Shown here piece by piece: positions 42,463-47,990 of a stretch of 64,000 nucleotides of DNA; position 1 is the first letter of the stretch, and the number at the start of each line of letters is the position of its first letter. Made by a program: the position numbers and the translations under genes. The notes under the pieces are model-generated. The model saw only the letters and a program-made list of their open reading frames with translations. It was not told the origin of the DNA and did no database searches. Source of the stretch: an uncultured bacterium (GTDB taxonomy: Bacteria; Patescibacteriota; Microgenomatia; Levybacterales; UBA12049). The stretch is from assembly GCA_963826535.1 (NCBI GenBank), contig CAWGXL010000011.1:803521-867520 (forward strand), read 5' to 3'.

Positions 42463-43437
42463 TTAGATGTTTTCGGTTTTTTGGTGATCAATAACATTTA
42501 TGTTCTGATTGGCGATTTGCGCTTGTGGTCTGGGTCTTAATAGATGGAAGGGGTGGTAGTGGATGCGGCCTTCGGAGATGAAGATGCCTATAAATATTAG
42601 CGCTGCGCCCAAAAGAAATGTGGTTGTAATAGTTTCTCCCAGTAAAGGTTTGGCAATGAGTATGGCGATAAGCGGATCAGCATAGGAGAAGACAGCGACT
42701 TGATTGGCAGATATATATTTCATGGCAAATGTGTGAAGAGTATAGGCAACTGTTGAACAAAGTACGGCACCAAATAAAATGCCTATAATGCTTTTTAAGT
42801 CAAAGCTGAGTAGTTGGCTTGTATTTCCGGCTTCAAGAAAAACTAGAGGCAGGAAACTGATAGAAGTTATAGTAAAAATCCAGAATGTTAAGGTCAATGG
42901 ATTATATTTGGGAGCAATTTCTTTAAGCATAAGTGTGTAAAAAACCGAAAGTCCCATTGAGACAATGAATAATAAATTGCCAATTAGCGAGCTGTCCATG
43001 CCGTTTTCAAACAGTGGACGCATAACAATTATTACGACCCCAATGAGGCTGATAATTGTACCTTGGACCATTTTTTTCTTCAATTTTTCATGTAGAAAGA
43101 TTGTTGAACCAATGATTAAGAAGATTGGGGCAGCTGATGCTATTACAGGTACATTAATACTTGGTGAGAACTTTAGTCCAACATAATAATAGGCGATATG
43201 GAAGGTTAGTCCGATTACCGATATAAACATGAGTATTGGCCAATCCGCGCTATGTATTTTAAGTTTTTTGCGGATAAAGGGATAAAGAATAGCTGCAGCA
43301 AGCGAAAAGCGAAGAAAAGCGAGAGTAAAAGGTTGGATTTCGTCTAAAGACCATTTAAAAATAGGCGGCGCCGCGCCCCAAATAAGGTTGGCAACGATTA
43401 AGGAGAGTACTGCGAGTTGAATCTTGGACAGTTTCAT
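42463..43437 (-). CDS. EamA/DMT superfamily transporter
   Basis: 10 TM helices, two EamA repeats (LIVANLIWGAAPPIFK...). Confidence 0.7.
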   Translation of the reverse strand: MKLSKIQLAVLSLIVANLIWGAAPPIFKWSLDEIQPFTLAFLRFSLAAAILYPFIRKKLKIHSADWPILMFISVIGLTFHIAYYYVGLKFSPSINVPVIASAAPIFLIIGSTIFLHEKLKKKMVQGTIISLIGVVIIVMRPLFENGMDSSLIGNLLFIVSMGLSVFYTLMLKEIAPKYNPLTLTFWIFTITSISFLPLVFLEAGNTSQLLSFDLKSIIGILFGAVLCSTVAYTLHTFAMKYISANQVAVFSYADPLIAILIAKPLLGETITTTFLLGAALIFIGIFISEGRIHYHPFHLLRPRPQAQIANQNINVIDHQKTENI

Positions 43438-43470
43438 TGTGTAGACTTATTCTACTATATCATATTTTTA

Positions 43471-44745
43471 TTACTTGAGCGCTTCCAGGAGTTTTTCGAG
43501 GGTGTATTGTTTTTGCAGACGGGTTTTTAGGTTTTTTAGGGTTACTACATTTTTTTCTAATTCTTCAGGACCAATTATAATCACATTTGGAATTCCTTTT
43601 TGGTCTGCATATTTGAGTTGTTTTTCCAGAGGATTTTTTTCTTTTATTTCACCGAGATATATTTCAGTGTTGATATTGTCCGAACGAAGAATGGAGGCGA
43701 TTTGTAGAGATTGTTTCATGAGTTTTTCATTAAACACTGTTATCAGTACTTGAGCTACTTTTGCTTTTATATCAGGAATTTTATTGAATTGTTTGAGCAA
43801 TTCTTGTATAGGCATATCTCCCGGCGCCATTCCAACTCCGGGAATTCTTTCTCCCCCAATTGTTGCTGTTAAATTATCAAACCTGCCACCACCAAAAATT
43901 GCCCTTTTCAATCCTTGAGTTTTATCCCATGCTTCAAAGACAGTACGAGTATAGTAGTCAAAACCTCTAAATATTTTGGGATCAAATTCTATATATTGCT
44001 TAATATCAGAGTAATTTTCTAATGAATTAAATACTTTTTTCAGCCATTCGGATTTTGTGTAATCCTTGTTATCTATGAATTCAAATAGTGATTCTATTTG
44101 ATTTTCAGATAAGTCAGAGGTCTTTTTTATTTTTGCTAACAATTCAACTCTAGGAAGTTTATCAATTTTGTCGAGTAATCTAATTAATGTAGGACGATCC
44201 TTTATGGCAATATTTTGTTTATCACAAAAATCTTCAAAGAATGATCTGTCGCTTACTTTGATTACTACTTCATCAGGCGTAAGATTCAGTTCTTTAAAAA
44301 ATTCGGCTGCAATTGCCAGGATTTCTGCGTCGGCTTCCGGTGTTTCGGGACCTAAGATATTGATTTCCCATTGGAAGAATTCCCGGCCTCTCCCTTTTTG
44401 GGGCTGTTCATATCTCCAACCGCGGCCAAACATAAACCATCTAATTGGTTTTAATAGTTCCTGAGATTTTTGAGCGACCATACGAGCGACAGTGGGGGTG
44501 AGCTCGGGACGCAAGACAAGCAGATTGTTGTCTTTGTCTTTTAGTGTAAAGACTTGTTCTTTCAAAATTTCTTCATTTGTTTTATTTGCGTATAAGTCAA
44601 GATATTCAATTTCCGGTCCGTCATATTCTTGATAACCAAATTTTTCAGATACTTTTTTCATTTTTTGGTACAACCAATTGCGGAGCGCTAAATCATCCGG
44701 GTAAAAATCTCTGGTTCCTTTAACTGGCGATATTGTTTTATTCAT
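43471..44745 (-). CDS. hisS: Histidine--tRNA ligase
   Basis: Class II motifs: KGTRDFYP (motif 1 region), FRYEQPQKGRGREFFQ (motif 2), GGGRFD (motif 3); C-terminal anticodon-binding domain present, so HisS rather than HisZ. Confidence 0.8.
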   Translation of the reverse strand: MNKTISPVKGTRDFYPDDLALRNWLYQKMKKVSEKFGYQEYDGPEIEYLDLYANKTNEEILKEQVFTLKDKDNNLLVLRPELTPTVARMVAQKSQELLKPIRWFMFGRGWRYEQPQKGRGREFFQWEINILGPETPEADAEILAIAAEFFKELNLTPDEVVIKVSDRSFFEDFCDKQNIAIKDRPTLIRLLDKIDKLPRVELLAKIKKTSDLSENQIESLFEFIDNKDYTKSEWLKKVFNSLENYSDIKQYIEFDPKIFRGFDYYTRTVFEAWDKTQGLKRAIFGGGRFDNLTATIGGERIPGVGMAPGDMPIQELLKQFNKIPDIKAKVAQVLITVFNEKLMKQSLQIASILRSDNINTEIYLGEIKEKNPLEKQLKYADQKGIPNVIIIGPEELEKNVVTLKNLKTRLQKQYTLEKLLEALK

Positions 44746-44827
44746 AATGGTGTTTAATCATGAGTTTATTATACATTGAAAAGTTGAAAGTTTAAAGCGC
44801 AGCTAAAAATATAAAAATTGTACCTCA

Positions 44828-45538
44828 CTACATCAGTCTCCTTTTTTGTTGGGCGATAGTTATTTTATCTCTTATATCATCAAGAATCTGCTTGTCTCTT
44901 TGGCTCATTTTTTCTTCAGATTCAATCAGCCGTGTAGCGACTTGGTGAAATCTTTCAAGTTCTATAATATTGTTTGCCGCAATTGTCCGGCCTGAATCAA
45001 CCACATCAATTATTCCGACACAATCGTTAAATACATACTGTATTGCTTCTGTTTTTCCGGGAGATTCAAATATCGTAATTTCTTTTACACCTCTTTCATT
45101 TAAAGTTTCTTTGGAGATATTGGGAAATTTTGTGACAACCATTTTATTTTTTAAATCAATTACTCCAATTGATCCGTTTCTTATTCTTGTTTCTTGTTCA
45201 AATCGTTTAGTTACGCCTATAAAAAGAGCAGGTCTAGTTATGTCTGGGAAGAGTTCGTATATCGGAAGTGCTTCGCCTGCATTGGCGTTGAGTCCGGCTT
45301 CCCATAAGATGTCACTTCCGGTTATCCCTGCTTTTAAATTTGAGCGGGTGTCTTTTAGAATGCGCGGTATATCGCTTGCCCGCATAACGATAAGATCAAG
45401 CGGCATATTTTTTACCGGAACAAGATACTGCTTGCCGCAGTCCGTAAAATCCAGACCAACTGCTTTTAACAGTTTGTTAACATTTGTTTGTAGTTCTCCG
45501 CCGGGAAGAGCTATTCTTGTACGTTCGATATCTTTCAT
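44828..45538 (-). CDS. hisG: ATP phosphoribosyltransferase (HisG-like)
   Basis: TRIALPGGEL (cf. RIAIPSKGRL), DIPRILKD...GITGSDIL, C-terminal DVVDSGRTIAANNI (cf. DLVSTGATLRANGL). Confidence 0.65.
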   Translation of the reverse strand: MKDIERTRIALPGGELQTNVNKLLKAVGLDFTDCGKQYLVPVKNMPLDLIVMRASDIPRILKDTRSNLKAGITGSDILWEAGLNANAGEALPIYELFPDITRPALFIGVTKRFEQETRIRNGSIGVIDLKNKMVVTKFPNISKETLNERGVKEITIFESPGKTEAIQYVFNDCVGIIDVVDSGRTIAANNIIELERFHQVATRLIESEEKMSQRDKQILDDIRDKITIAQQKRRLM

Positions 45539-45639
45539 AAAAAAACATTTTTTTCAACAAAAAAACCTCACGTTCGTTATTTACCATTTGGCCTATATGA
45601 ATAGGTAATGGTGAAATAAGGAACGAGAGGTATTCGACG

Positions 45640-45900
45640 AGCTCATACTCATGAGCAATATCCTCCATACCTTAGCATTCGCCTTTTAGTACTATTCGTA
45701 CACGGCTCATGCTGCGGTATTCGGAGGATGATGAGATCGTTGTCCCATCAAAAAAGGACCTCTCGCGGTCCCATCCTTGATTCCTAAAGGCATTTTTCCT
45801 TTAGGCTCTTCGGCCGACTCCGCGTTACGACATCGACTGTTGTAGTTTACGGTTCAACTTCCGTAAGGCATTTTTGCCTTCAGCTTCCGGATCGTGACTC
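45640..45900 (-). promoter_or_regulatory. Candidate T-box riboswitch leader (tRNA-His-sensing) upstream of hisG-hisS
   Basis: On the minus strand: strong stem cctaaagg-aaaaatg-cctttagg (Stem III-like), then aaucaAGGAUGGGACCGCGag matching the T-box consensus AGGGUGGNACCGCG (12/13). Bulge UGGG implies discriminator C73 (tRNA-His). Then ggacc-gcgaga-ggtcc + UUUUUU terminator. Confidence 0.45.
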
Positions 45901-46074
45901 CGGTCAGACGCTTTATAAATCTTTAATTGTTCTGTTATTTTAGCATAAAAGAATATTTTGTCAAATTTTGTAGGCTATTTTATCAGCTTTCGTAGAGGTT
46001 GTGAAGTGCTTTTGTTACTGGATACGTTTATTTGCTATTTGTTTAAAACCGATAGAAAATCAGCAATTTTAGTT

Positions 46075-46911
46075 TTATTTAGCTTGTATATATTCTTTTT
46101 GGGCAACTTGATTAAGTATTAGTCTAAAATCGCTAAATACTTCAAGTCCATTCTCCTTCCCAAATGATCCACTAGGGCCTCTAGCAACACCTAGTACTTT
46201 TCCTTCATTATCTACCAAAGGCCCACCGCTATTGCCTGGTAAAACTCTTCCATTATAGTAAAGATGTAGGTCTTTTGTCTCAGTTACCCCTTGCCTTTTC
46301 ATCAAAGCTTGCATATAAGGAGTGTGGTTGGGAGGCTCTTTAGTAGAAACTTTGCCTATACTTATTAAAGGTCTTTGAGAGTCAGCCCAAGCTTCTTTAA
46401 ATTCACCGGGAAACCTAATGGCTGCAGCATTTTGAGTTGTATCATGGCGCACATTCTGTTCGGATATCTCAACTCCTTCATTATCGCCTTCAAATGGAAA
46501 TATAGCTGCATCAGTTGCATGCATGCCATTAGATTTAGCGGTGATGCTATCATAAAGCAAATCAGGATTTTTCATCACCCCTTCTATCATTTCTCCTTTA
46601 TTATCTCTGTAGTGATACTTCAGTGATTTTTCAGGATGAGCTAACATTTCGTCTATTACATGTGTTGCTGTTACTAAATATTTATTCCCCTCATAGGAAA
46701 TGATTACTCCACTGCCACCAGGTTCTGAAGGGTTTTCACTTACAAGTACGGTTGCATTAACAGCTTGTTGTAATTCTGGAATAACACCTTGTTCAGATTT
46801 AAAATAATGAGTCCTATCTTGAAATGTAGGATTTTGGAATGTTGCTGTGTCTAATGAATCCCTAACTTCAGTAGCTGGTCTATACCCAGTTTCTATAAAA
46901 CCTGCATCCAT
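46075..46911 (-). CDS. Trypsin-like (S1 family) serine peptidase, no signal peptide
   Basis: His in YLVTATHVI, Asp in ATDAAIFPF, Ser in GNSGGPLVDNEGKVLGVA. Confidence 0.7.
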   Translation of the reverse strand: MDAGFIETGYRPATEVRDSLDTATFQNPTFQDRTHYFKSEQGVIPELQQAVNATVLVSENPSEPGGSGVIISYEGNKYLVTATHVIDEMLAHPEKSLKYHYRDNKGEMIEGVMKNPDLLYDSITAKSNGMHATDAAIFPFEGDNEGVEISEQNVRHDTTQNAAAIRFPGEFKEAWADSQRPLISIGKVSTKEPPNHTPYMQALMKRQGVTETKDLHLYYNGRVLPGNSGGPLVDNEGKVLGVARGPSGSFGKENGLEVFSDFRLILNQVAQKEYIQAK

Positions 46912-47076: not shown

Positions 47077-47883
47077 TTATTCTTTTTGGGCAACTTGTTT
47101 AAGTATCTGTCTAAAATCGCTAAATATATTATTCTCACCAAATCCACTAGGGCCTTCAGCAACACCTAGTACTTTTCCTTCATTATCTACCAAAGGCCCA
47201 CCACTATTGCCTCGTGTAATTTTTCCATTATAGTAAAAATATAGATCTTCTATCTCATTTACCGTTTGTATTTCCAAAGCATGCATGTAAGTATTGTATA
47301 TAAGAGGCTTGTTAGGAAAGGCATTTCCTATACTAATTAAGGGTCTTTGAGATTCAACCCAAGCATGTTTAAATGCACCAGGAAATCCTATGGCTGCAGT
47401 ATTTTGGGTTACATTATGTAGCAAACTCTTTTCAGATATTTCAACTCCTTCATTGCCGCCTTCAAATGGAAATATAGCTGCATCAGTAGATCGCAGACCT
47501 TTAGATATAGCTGTAATGCTATCATAAAGCAAATCAGGATTTTTCATCACCCCTTCTTTTATCTCTCCTTTACTATCTCTGTAGTGATATTTAAGTGACG
47601 TTTCAGGATGAGCTAACATTTCACCAATCACATGTGTTGCTGTTACTAAATATTTATTCCCCTCATAGGAAATGATTACTCCACTGCCACCAGGTTCTGA
47701 AGGGTTTTCACTTACAAGTACGGTTGCATTAACAGCTTGTTGTAATTCTGGAATAACACCTTGTTCAGATTTAAAATAGATAATTCTATCTAAAGGTGTA
47801 GGATTTTGGAATGTTGCTGTGTCTAATGATCTCCTTACCTCAGAAGTTTGTCTATATAGAGCTTCTACAGCATTTGAAACCAT
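47077..47883 (-). CDS. Trypsin-like (S1 family) serine peptidase, tandem paralogue
   Basis: Same triad motifs. About 150 bp (47640-47790) are 100% identical to 46661-46810 of the neighbour, with identical upstream catatttattattagt; C-terminal halves diverge. Confidence 0.7.
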   Translation of the reverse strand: MVSNAVEALYRQTSEVRRSLDTATFQNPTPLDRIIYFKSEQGVIPELQQAVNATVLVSENPSEPGGSGVIISYEGNKYLVTATHVIGEMLAHPETSLKYHYRDSKGEIKEGVMKNPDLLYDSITAISKGLRSTDAAIFPFEGGNEGVEISEKSLLHNVTQNTAAIGFPGAFKHAWVESQRPLISIGNAFPNKPLIYNTYMHALEIQTVNEIEDLYFYYNGKITRGNSGGPLVDNEGKVLGVAEGPSGFGENNIFSDFRQILKQVAQKE

Positions 47884-47990
47884 ATTTATTATTAGTGTAG
47901 CAAAAAAGTTTTGTAAATCAAGCTCATTTATTAAGATTGGCATTAACTAAGGAGAGGGTGGTTTGTATGAAATTTTGAGTGAGGGGAATA

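Follow-up and report, generated by a model that had tools for sequence, protein, structure and literature searches.

The window considered here is a 64,000-nucleotide (64-kb) stretch of contig CAWGXL010000011.1 from an uncultured bacterium of the Patescibacteriota. On its minus strand, a 536-nucleotide (nt) intergenic region separates a trypsin-like peptidase gene, which ends at 46075, from the ATG of hisG at 45538. Most of this region is occupied by an element that extends on the minus strand from a promoter-like site to a U7 tract (45964-45559) and that, judging from its sequence and from that of its relatives, very likely represents a promoter and a functional tRNA-His T-box riboswitch acting by termination on hisG-hisS(-EamA). 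It would be a very divergent member of a large and apparently undescribed family of T-boxes from the candidate phyla radiation (CPR, or Patescibacteria), in which a minimal tRNA-reading stem is combined with transcription terminators. The parts of the element and the genes behind it are listed below in the order of transcription; RF00230 is the Rfam model for T-boxes.

45937..45964, minus strand: promoter-like site, sigma-70-like, with TTGACA (45964-45959), a 16-nt spacer containing TG (extended -10) and TAAAAT (45942-45937)
45882..45914, minus strand: ultrashort Stem I, consisting of P0, P1 and a 7-nt terminal loop
45865..45880, minus strand: P2, the Stem II equivalent, AAGGCA-AAAA-UGCCUU, placed at Stem II by RF00230
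45839..45864, minus strand: putative Stem IIA/B pseudoknot and F-box-like sequence, with IIA formed by ACGG/CCGU and GUUG (45858-45855) able to pair with CAAC (45842-45839)
45813..45837, minus strand: extra hairpin P4, GUCGA..UCGGC with inner UCGU/GCGG
45783..45810, minus strand: conserved purine linker AAGAG (45810-45806) and Stem III, CCUAAAGG-AAAAAUG-CCUUUAGG (45805-45783)
45759..45778, minus strand: T-box sequence, the 5' strands of the antiterminator, with A1 AAGGA (45778-45774), bulge UGGGACC (45773-45767) and A2 GCGAGAGG (45766-45759)
45750..45772, minus strand: small hairpin T1, GGGACC-GCGAGA-GGUCCU followed by U6, -10.8 kcal/mol, found by the terminator scan
45641..45749, minus strand: structured insertion of about 110 nt in the A2 loop, with hairpins at 45749-45730, 45729-45660 and 45656-45641
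45618..45630, minus strand: 3' strand of the antiterminator, with A2 CCUCUCGU (45630-45623) and A1 UCCUU (45622-45618)
45559..45631, minus strand: T2, the main predicted intrinsic terminator, a long hairpin (45631-45565) followed by U7 (45565-45559), -28.7 kcal/mol
42463..45538, minus strand: the genes predicted to be regulated, namely hisG of the short form (45538-44828), hisS (44745-43471) and a gene for an EamA-family transporter (43437-42463), assigned with Pfam and NCBIfam

The hisG product matches TIGR00070 with 86 bits (cut-off 75.75), and the hisS product is a true HisRS, with 348 bits against TIGR00442 (cut-off 286.75). Among the homologous loci, which are numbered from L001, the order hisS-EamA is kept in L007 and L008, and the adjacency of hisG and hisS recurs in the distant relatives L003, L004 and L005. 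The promoter-like site scores 11 out of 12 and lies 23 nt upstream of a conserved 5' AAAGCG; a TTGACA/TAnAAT pair is found at the equivalent position in L006 and in many other members of the family, and transcription is expected to start near 45930. The fold of the 397-nt leader has a z-score of -9.3. A sequence-only reading of this DNA had already proposed a tRNA-His T-box leader at this place. The features that it named do fall inside the element, whose true extent is larger and includes a stronger second terminator that had not been described.

The relatives of the leader were collected in several ways. A HisG search of genome contigs returned no relatives, an exact-protein look-up of the window HisG returned nothing, and the distant HisG/HisS homologues (L001-L005, L007 and L008) have neither a long upstream region nor a T-box motif and are comparatively uninformative. 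The closest HisRS relative (L006, 75% identity), however, has an equivalent leader in front of an aminotransferase-aminotransferase-hisS operon, with compensatory changes in three stems and without the approximately 110 nt present in the window. A specifier-agnostic pattern scan, conducted on one genome per species, gave 27 distinct members, and a second scan in which the loop triplet was left free gave 51 metagenome loci; an nhmmer search with the decoding module was used for a census of the collected loci. In total, 61 distinct His-type leaders were obtained, and the labels of almost all of them point to Patescibacteria. Those found in the first scan are nearly all labelled Gottesmanbacteria, Daviesbacteria, Levyibacteriota, Microgenomates, Saccharibacteria, Paceibacterota or 'Patescibacteria group'. 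That scan additionally matched a few canonical Firmicutes T-boxes, in which GUUGAACCGU lies at the Stem IIA/F-box position. Nine contigs (L017, L026, L035, L061, L067, L080, L099, L105 and L117) combine a Patescibacteria-type leader and gene content with the NCBI titles 'uncultured Gammaproteobacteria' or 'Pseudomonadales'; these are third-party-annotation (TPA) metagenome-assembled genomes (MAGs) from co-assemblies, and the labels are doubtful.

A structure model comprising P0, P1, P2, IIA, IIB, P4, Stem III, A1 and A2 was scored on an alignment of 27 sequences, to which the pairing percentages given here refer. Overall, the model pairs 92.9% of cells, and both sides have changed in 24 of its 50 pairs. 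None of 500 shuffles reached the observed value for four of the five measures, and 4 of 500 did so for further pair types. In controls in which the 3' partner was slid by 1-3 columns, only 32-53% of cells were paired.

The switching half of the leader follows the canonical plan. The T-box consensus match claimed from the sequence alone is present as AAGGAUGGGACCGCG at 45778-45764; it has a single mismatch to AGGGUGGNACCGCG and is the sole such site in the 64 kb, but the motif on its own is weak, since 28 of 100 shuffled versions of the window have at least one match with two or fewer mismatches. The geometry around it is that of an antiterminator, with an A1 helix of 5 bp, a 7-nt bulge and an A2 helix of 8 bp (AAGGA, UGGGACC and GCGRGAGG against CCUCUCGU and UCCUU), and RF00230 places CUCGUUCCUU on the 3' side of this structure. 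In A2, 98.6% of cells are paired, with three compensatory pairs, and the strands are complementary in all members save for a terminal mismatch in five. The variants include GCGGAAGG/CCUUUCGU in L087, GCGGAGG/CCUUCGU in L026 and L035, where one base pair has been lost on both strands, and, in the window, a G-U pair that has become A-U.

Two terminators are associated with this antiterminator. T1 is located within the A2 loop, and the T-box bulge UGGGACC is itself part of its helix. Its U-run is at least five residues long in 59 of the 61 members, and its 3' arm changes from C to U only, with G-U pairs preserved; L080 and L117 have an extended version. The sequence-only reading had taken this hairpin for the terminator and had placed it about 130 nt before the start codon. 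The hairpin and its U6 are present at 45772-45750, but about 210 nt separate the end of the U-run from the hisG ATG, and the hairpin that competes with the antiterminator is that of T2 (45631-45565). T1 was accordingly rejected as the sole regulated terminator, given that the T-box strand can pair with the 5' arm of T2 and that the two covary.

This 5' arm of T2 is the antiterminator 3' strand (CCUCUCGUUCCUU), and the terminator and antiterminator are thus mutually exclusive folds, for which the sequence-only reading had suggested a check. The 17 basal pairs of T2 are 92% paired, with seven changed on both sides, and a conserved C-U mismatch involves the C that has a partner in A1. Behind the hairpin, all 27 aligned members have a run of 4-7 U. 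The T2 of the window ends some 27 nt short of the hisG ATG and contains no Shine-Dalgarno sequence. The terminator state of the window (-91.2 kcal/mol) is favored over the enforced antiterminator (-80.0 kcal/mol) by about 11 kcal/mol, as expected of a switch that requires a ligand to turn on. In four members (L029, L100, L135 and L148), 6-7 nt separate the GGGAG(G) of the T2 3' arm from the AUG of the first gene downstream, and it is possible that the terminator there also sequesters the ribosome-binding site, giving dual transcriptional and translational control.

The decoding half is more unusual. Stem I is reduced to a 5-bp helix with a 7-nt loop above a short basal helix. The basal helix P0, AGC (45912-45910) with GCU (45884-45882), lies within a conserved AAAGCG...GCUG frame and shows compensatory changes to AAC/GUU in L070 and UGC/GCA in L117. 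The upper helix P1, CCGGA/UCCGG (45903-45887), is paired in 27 of 27 aligned sequences, with two covarying pairs, and occurs in nine complementary variants among the 61 members. Its terminal loop GUCACGA (45898-45892) contains the triplet CAC (45896-45894), followed by a purine. A hairpin with this triplet had been suggested as a possible specifier; it stands, with the same loop in most relatives, except that the triplet is in the terminal loop and not at the canonical internal-loop position. Approximately 75 positions of the RF00230 model are deleted here, and neither an internal specifier loop nor a distal interdigitated T-loop platform is found in Stem I of the window or in the RF00230 alignments. 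At the base of Stem I, where the K-turn/GA motif would be expected, RF00230 aligns AAAGCG-UGA...GAGCU.

In P2, all five pairs have changed on both sides, 96% of cells are paired and the A-rich loop is conserved. P2 has no S-turn (loop E), as it is a hairpin of 5-6 bp with a CAAAAU or AAAA loop and shows gaps at the GAA/AGUA positions of the model; tentatively, the A-rich loop replaces the purine string of the S-turn. Downstream of P2, the F-box-like sequence CCGUAA (45852-45847) is aligned by RF00230 to CGUUA. The segment ACGG-AAGUUGAA-CCGUAA and the CAAC that follows can pair as a pseudoknot, and this arrangement is near-invariant, with variation confined to one change of U-A to U-G (L071) and to ACAG/CUGU in place of ACGG/CCGU in an Arg-type leader of L080 (vide infra). 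For T-boxes, the F-box CCGUCA has been assigned to the IIA/B pseudoknot (PMC7583486). The extra hairpin P4, with five of nine pairs changed on both sides and 89% of cells paired, is not represented in the Rfam T-box model, and the RF00230 alignment treats it as an insertion. Stem III, noticed previously as an 8-bp Stem-III-like hairpin, is present at 45805-45783, and all seven of its counted pairs covary, though the MAFFT alignment is partly wrong in this region.

The assignment of specificity relies on the loop triplet, the bulge and the genes behind the leader. The loop GUCACGA was found by a regular expression in 57 of the 61 His members; the expression overlooked three of the other four, and L094 is truly without CAC. 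UGGG is present in all 61, but a match to UGGG was a criterion for their collection. His-type leaders are found ahead of tRNA-His(GUG) genes, of his operons or of hisS. A tRNA-His(GUG) gene lies within 75-200 nt in about half of the His members and is followed by hisG-hisD-hisC, with hisS further downstream in several; other members precede hisG-hisD-hisC operons. The proposal that the UGGG bulge reads the C73 discriminator of tRNA-His is upheld by these linked genes, of which 32 of 32 have G-1 and C73, and whose 3'-CCCA is complementary to UGGG.

A sister class strengthens this assignment. Six distinct leaders have the loop GUCGCGA, with the Arg codon CGC, together with a canonical GGUGG T-box and a bulge of UGGU or UGGC, and they do not have T1. 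Two tRNA-Arg genes follow one of these leaders (L139), each with A73, which matches the UGGU bulge of the leader, and argS lies about 4 kb further on. No linked tRNA-Arg was found for the UGGC-bulge leaders among the loci examined. A His and an Arg leader occur together on the L080 contig. Between the His and Arg classes, therefore, the loop triplet changes in step with the base that pairs with the discriminator and with the kind of genes downstream, as is characteristic of a T-box specifier. CAC and CGC, the two specifiers, both end in C, and the 'C rule' for T-boxes predicts specifiers of this kind (PMC7583486).

A tRNA-His gene lies directly between the terminator and hisG in L011, L022, L026, L035, L051, L053, L054, L061, L070, L071, L077, L080 and L124 and in about 20 metagenome loci, such as L128, L130 and L134. 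In these loci the cognate tRNA gene itself appears to be under T-box control, an arrangement that appears to be undescribed.

Several observations weigh against the interpretation of the window as a T-box. The gathering cut-off of RF00230 is 93 bits. Against the whole 64-kb window the model returned nothing at the gathering score, and over 45400-46200 (801 nt) it returned nothing at E <=10; the 5' part of the leader alone gave a 3'-truncated match of 16.2 bits (E = 0.077). The search of the reverse complement with RF00230, which had been offered as a check on the sequence-only reading and a failure of which, together with the lack of a plausible Stem I with GA motif and specifier loop, had been named as refuting it, thus gave no significant match in the window. 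No relative reaches the 93-bit gathering score either. The A2 loop of the window is 135 nt long, which may weaken formation of the antiterminator, and at the base of Stem I the window has AA on the 3' strand where GA is expected, with a hairpin inserted at this junction in several members. The IIA/B pseudoknot and helix A1 are invariant, and covariation is consequently unable to support either of them. In L094 (7300-7450), the Stem I hairpin is CGUAU-UCCCC-AUACG, without CAC in the loop. The C73 of tRNA-His normally pairs with G-1, which complicates a fourth pair with UGGG. With regard to L094, a CAU lies just 5' of Stem I, and the rest of the leader, the UGGG and the downstream tRNA-His are intact.

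Given the lack of a significant RF00230 match and the unremarkable motif, the window sequence alone is unable to settle the question, and the relatives are more informative. L051, which does not have the insertion of the window, is matched by RF00230 over its full length with 43.8 bits (E = 1.1e-8), and seven of nine further loci, of both His and Arg types, score 32-47 bits (E from 1e-7 to 7e-4). The alignment proceeds in the order of Stem I base, P2 at Stem II, ACGGAAGUUGAACCGUUA at Stem IIA and the F-box, AAGAG and Stem III, the T-box and the antiterminator 3' strand, in agreement with the manual placement. It is likely that the failure of RF00230 on the window is due to the insertion of about 110 nt. 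Since all of the scores fall below 93 bits, the family has been left unannotated; at the gathering score, only tRNAs were found by Rfam in 18 member loci. Weak matches of mir-1, SAM-V and snoRNA models within the leader were dismissed as chance matches to hairpins. Taken with the homologues, the covariation and the cognate gene context, the suggestion of T-box control of a hisG-hisS pair in a CPR-like genome is well supported at the level of sequence comparison.

Based on the established T-box mechanism (PMC7583486), uncharged tRNA-His would be recognized twice, through pairing of its GUG anticodon with CAC and of its 3'-CCCA with UGGG. Docking of the tRNA would stabilize the antiterminator and allow RNA polymerase to read into hisG-hisS. 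On charged tRNA-His, the aminoacyl group would block docking of the 3' end, and the more stable T2 would form. T1 is probably an early terminator or a pause, which might buy time for tRNA capture in a leader without a Stem I elbow platform, although this role is tentative. The U-run behind T2 in 27 of 27 aligned members, and the many members that precede tRNA genes, which are not translated, indicate that control acts on transcription. A broader proposal can be put forward with confidence only slightly above even: that these leaders form an undescribed Patescibacteria-wide T-box class in which an ultrashort, platform-less Stem I is combined with termination; that they have two successive terminators, the first of which pairs the NCCA-binding bulge and is maybe a programmed pause; that there are at least His and Arg specificities; and that the cognate tRNA gene is often under control.

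Other explanations of the same features are far less probable. T1 resembles a real intrinsic terminator, with its U-run of at least five in 59 of 61 members, and the next gene is often a tRNA and not an mRNA, which would suit an independent, T-box-derived small RNA of about 180 nt that ends at T1 and binds or buffers tRNA-His in trans. However, CCUCUCGUUCCUU, which lies downstream of T1, is conserved and covaries with the T-box strand, and hence forms the antiterminator, an arrangement that is sensible only if transcription passes T1. The gene neighborhood is moreover consistently histidine-related, and the Arg sister class does without T1, making such a small RNA quite improbable. A translational, class II-like T-box, in which T2 would sequester the ribosome-binding site, is about equally improbable. 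It could draw on the fact that ultrashort Stem I structures have so far been linked to translational actinobacterial T-boxes (PMC7583486), and on the GGGAG(G) found near the AUG in the four members mentioned above; yet the T2 of the window ends about 27 nt before the ATG and lacks a Shine-Dalgarno sequence, U-runs of 4-7 are found in 27 of 27 members, and about half of the members precede a tRNA gene.

The two remaining possibilities can be considered nearly negligible. The insertion in the window contains a small open reading frame (ORF), MGQRSHHPPNTAA (45748-45707, minus strand), with the sequence His-His-Pro-Pro, on which a ribosome might stall as in a His leader-peptide attenuator, with two His codons and Pro-Pro; L033 has retained it in the form MRQRSHHPPKTAA. 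Most members, however, are without the insertion in which the ORF lies, and the AUG of the ORF is not preceded by a Shine-Dalgarno sequence. L134 has the equivalent RNA domain with no ORF and no His codons, on which ground the leader-peptide reading was rejected. The nucleotides of the ORF are explained by conserved RNA hairpins, and it is probably a by-product of that structure. As for chance resemblance, in which a T-box-like 14-mer would have arisen by accident in an unexceptional intergenic region with structure and terminators, the frequency of the motif in shuffled windows (28 of 100 at two or fewer mismatches) and the lack of a significant Rfam match in the window would fit it. Against it stand 61 homologues with covariation, RF00230 E-values down to 1e-8 in relatives, and the concerted change of specifier, bulge base and downstream genes between the His and Arg classes, and it is counted as already refuted.

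T-boxes are considered chiefly a trait of the Firmicutes and Actinobacteria; among the Firmicutes, hisS and his operons are known to have them. The leaders described here are homologous to the class I T-boxes and would work like them. They share with the class I T-boxes of Firmicutes (RF00230, e.g., Bacillus subtilis tyrS) a UGGNACC bulge between A1 and A2, an antiterminator 3' strand shared with a terminator and its U-run, purines before Stem III, a probable Stem IIA/B with an F-box-like sequence, a C-ending specifier and a UGGN that matches the discriminator. Aminoacyl-tRNA synthetase and amino-acid biosynthesis genes are targets of both. Unlike class I, this family lacks a long Stem I, an internal specifier loop, an elbow platform and a Stem II S-turn, whereas it has P4 and a T1 in the A2 loop; its members are from Patescibacteria, not Firmicutes, and score only 32-47 bits against RF00230 (16 for the window).

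The decoding module resembles that of the actinobacterial class II ileS T-boxes of Mycobacterium tuberculosis and Nocardia farcinica (Sherwood 2015; structures 6UFG and 6UFM, as cited in PMC7583486), whose Stem I is likewise ultrashort and bears the specifier in its apical loop (PMC7583486). As in these T-boxes, there is no elbow platform, the F-box is similar (CCGUCA there, CCGUAA here) and insertions in helix A2 are tolerated (PMC7583486). Lacking an elbow-binding platform, the RNA of this family presumably depends on Stem II and on the putative IIA/B pseudoknot. The ileS T-boxes differ in being Ile-specific and in sequestering a Shine-Dalgarno sequence, whereas the present leaders are His- or Arg-specific, have intrinsic terminators and often precede tRNA genes. 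In addition, Stem II here has no S-turn, which in the ileS structures docks on the codon-anticodon helix. There is also a functional parallel with the enterobacterial hisL attenuator, where charging of tRNA-His governs termination before hisG; in hisL this depends on ribosome stalling at a run of His codons, whereas here the tRNA would be read directly, with no conserved leader peptide.

Transcriptional T-boxes generally need a long Stem I platform so that the tRNA is captured fast (PMC7583486). If the interpretation given here is true, these leaders are a natural counter-example to that rule, in that they dispense with the Stem I elbow platform, and they extend direct tRNA sensing to reduced-genome episymbionts. 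A search of the literature, in a library that is partial and thus no proof of novelty, yielded no report linking T-boxes to CPR or Patescibacteria taxa, and the parts of the TBDB paper that were available (PMC7778990) do not mention T-boxes from these taxa. Direct sensors of tRNA charging would then be widespread in Patescibacteria, with the Rfam cut-off missing every member tested. This large sub-threshold class, with His and Arg specificities and often in front of tRNA genes, is of more interest than the single locus. With a decoding module of only about 75 nt and an unusual dual-terminator design, it may be well suited as a minimal system for studies of structure and kinetics, and possibly as a native regulatory part for genetic tools in Patescibacteria. 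The leaders would also mark genes that are tied to histidine or arginine supply in auxotroph-like organisms, including peptidases, racemase-like proteins and proteins without an assigned function.

The insertion in the A2 loop of the window is missing in most members, in which the gap at this position is 20-29 nt. Its hairpins 1 and 2 are shared with L033 (a Daviesbacteria MAG) and L134, with five covarying pairs, and hairpin 3 is shared with L006, L017 and L021. The long irregular hairpin has a conserved core, CAUGAGCC...GGCGAAUG, with tandem G-A. No Rfam family matches the insertion (45641-45749). Insertions in helix A2 are tolerated in other T-boxes (PMC7583486), and the stem Sa of the staphylococcal glyS T-box is a comparable lineage-specific structured insertion in the antiterminator/terminator domain; stem Sa, however, belongs to a canonical glycine T-box with a long Stem I, and the insertion at 45749-45641 is unrelated to it in sequence (PMC9177973).

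Several of the linked tRNA-His genes are themselves atypical. Those of L054, L124, L147, L158 and L165, identified with ARAGORN, and also those of L083, L099 and L117, differ in the T-arm, where an aberrant GCGGG-AGCGUUA-CCCGU replaces GGUUCGAAUCC, while GUG, G-1 and C73 are kept; these may be specialized or non-translational variants. In L067, about 90-250 nt after the T-box on the minus strand of that locus, a complete tRNA-His lies inside the seeming anticodon region of a second tRNA-like sequence, in the form GGUGGCAUUAGCUCAAUGGUAGAGCGUCCCGAU[tRNA-His]UCGGGAAUGUUGGCGGUUCAAAUCCGCUAUGCCACCCA. A conserved spacer of about 100-130 nt (GAUGGCU...GAUCAAUCCCGUA...) is found between T2 and the tRNA-His of L026, L053 and L170, and may be another structured element.

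Genes other than those for histidine or arginine are found behind some leaders. They include M20 peptidases (L029 and L155) and, by eye only, putative racemases resembling DapF/CntK (L135, L148 and L122). Proteins without a Pfam match are encoded behind the leaders of L021, L071, L132, L139 and L155.

No tRNA gene is present in the 64-kb window, nor does any Rfam family reach its gathering score there, and besides hisG no hisD, hisC, hisB or other histidine biosynthesis gene was found in it. Its short-form hisG adjoins a true hisS with an anticodon-binding domain, and there is no hisZ; HisRS might serve as a stand-in for the HisZ regulatory subunit, or hisG might have another role. Just upstream of the leader are the trypsin-like peptidase gene and a paralogue in tandem with it (46075-46911 and 47077-47943). 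On the plus strand, G exceeds C nearly throughout the 64 kb.

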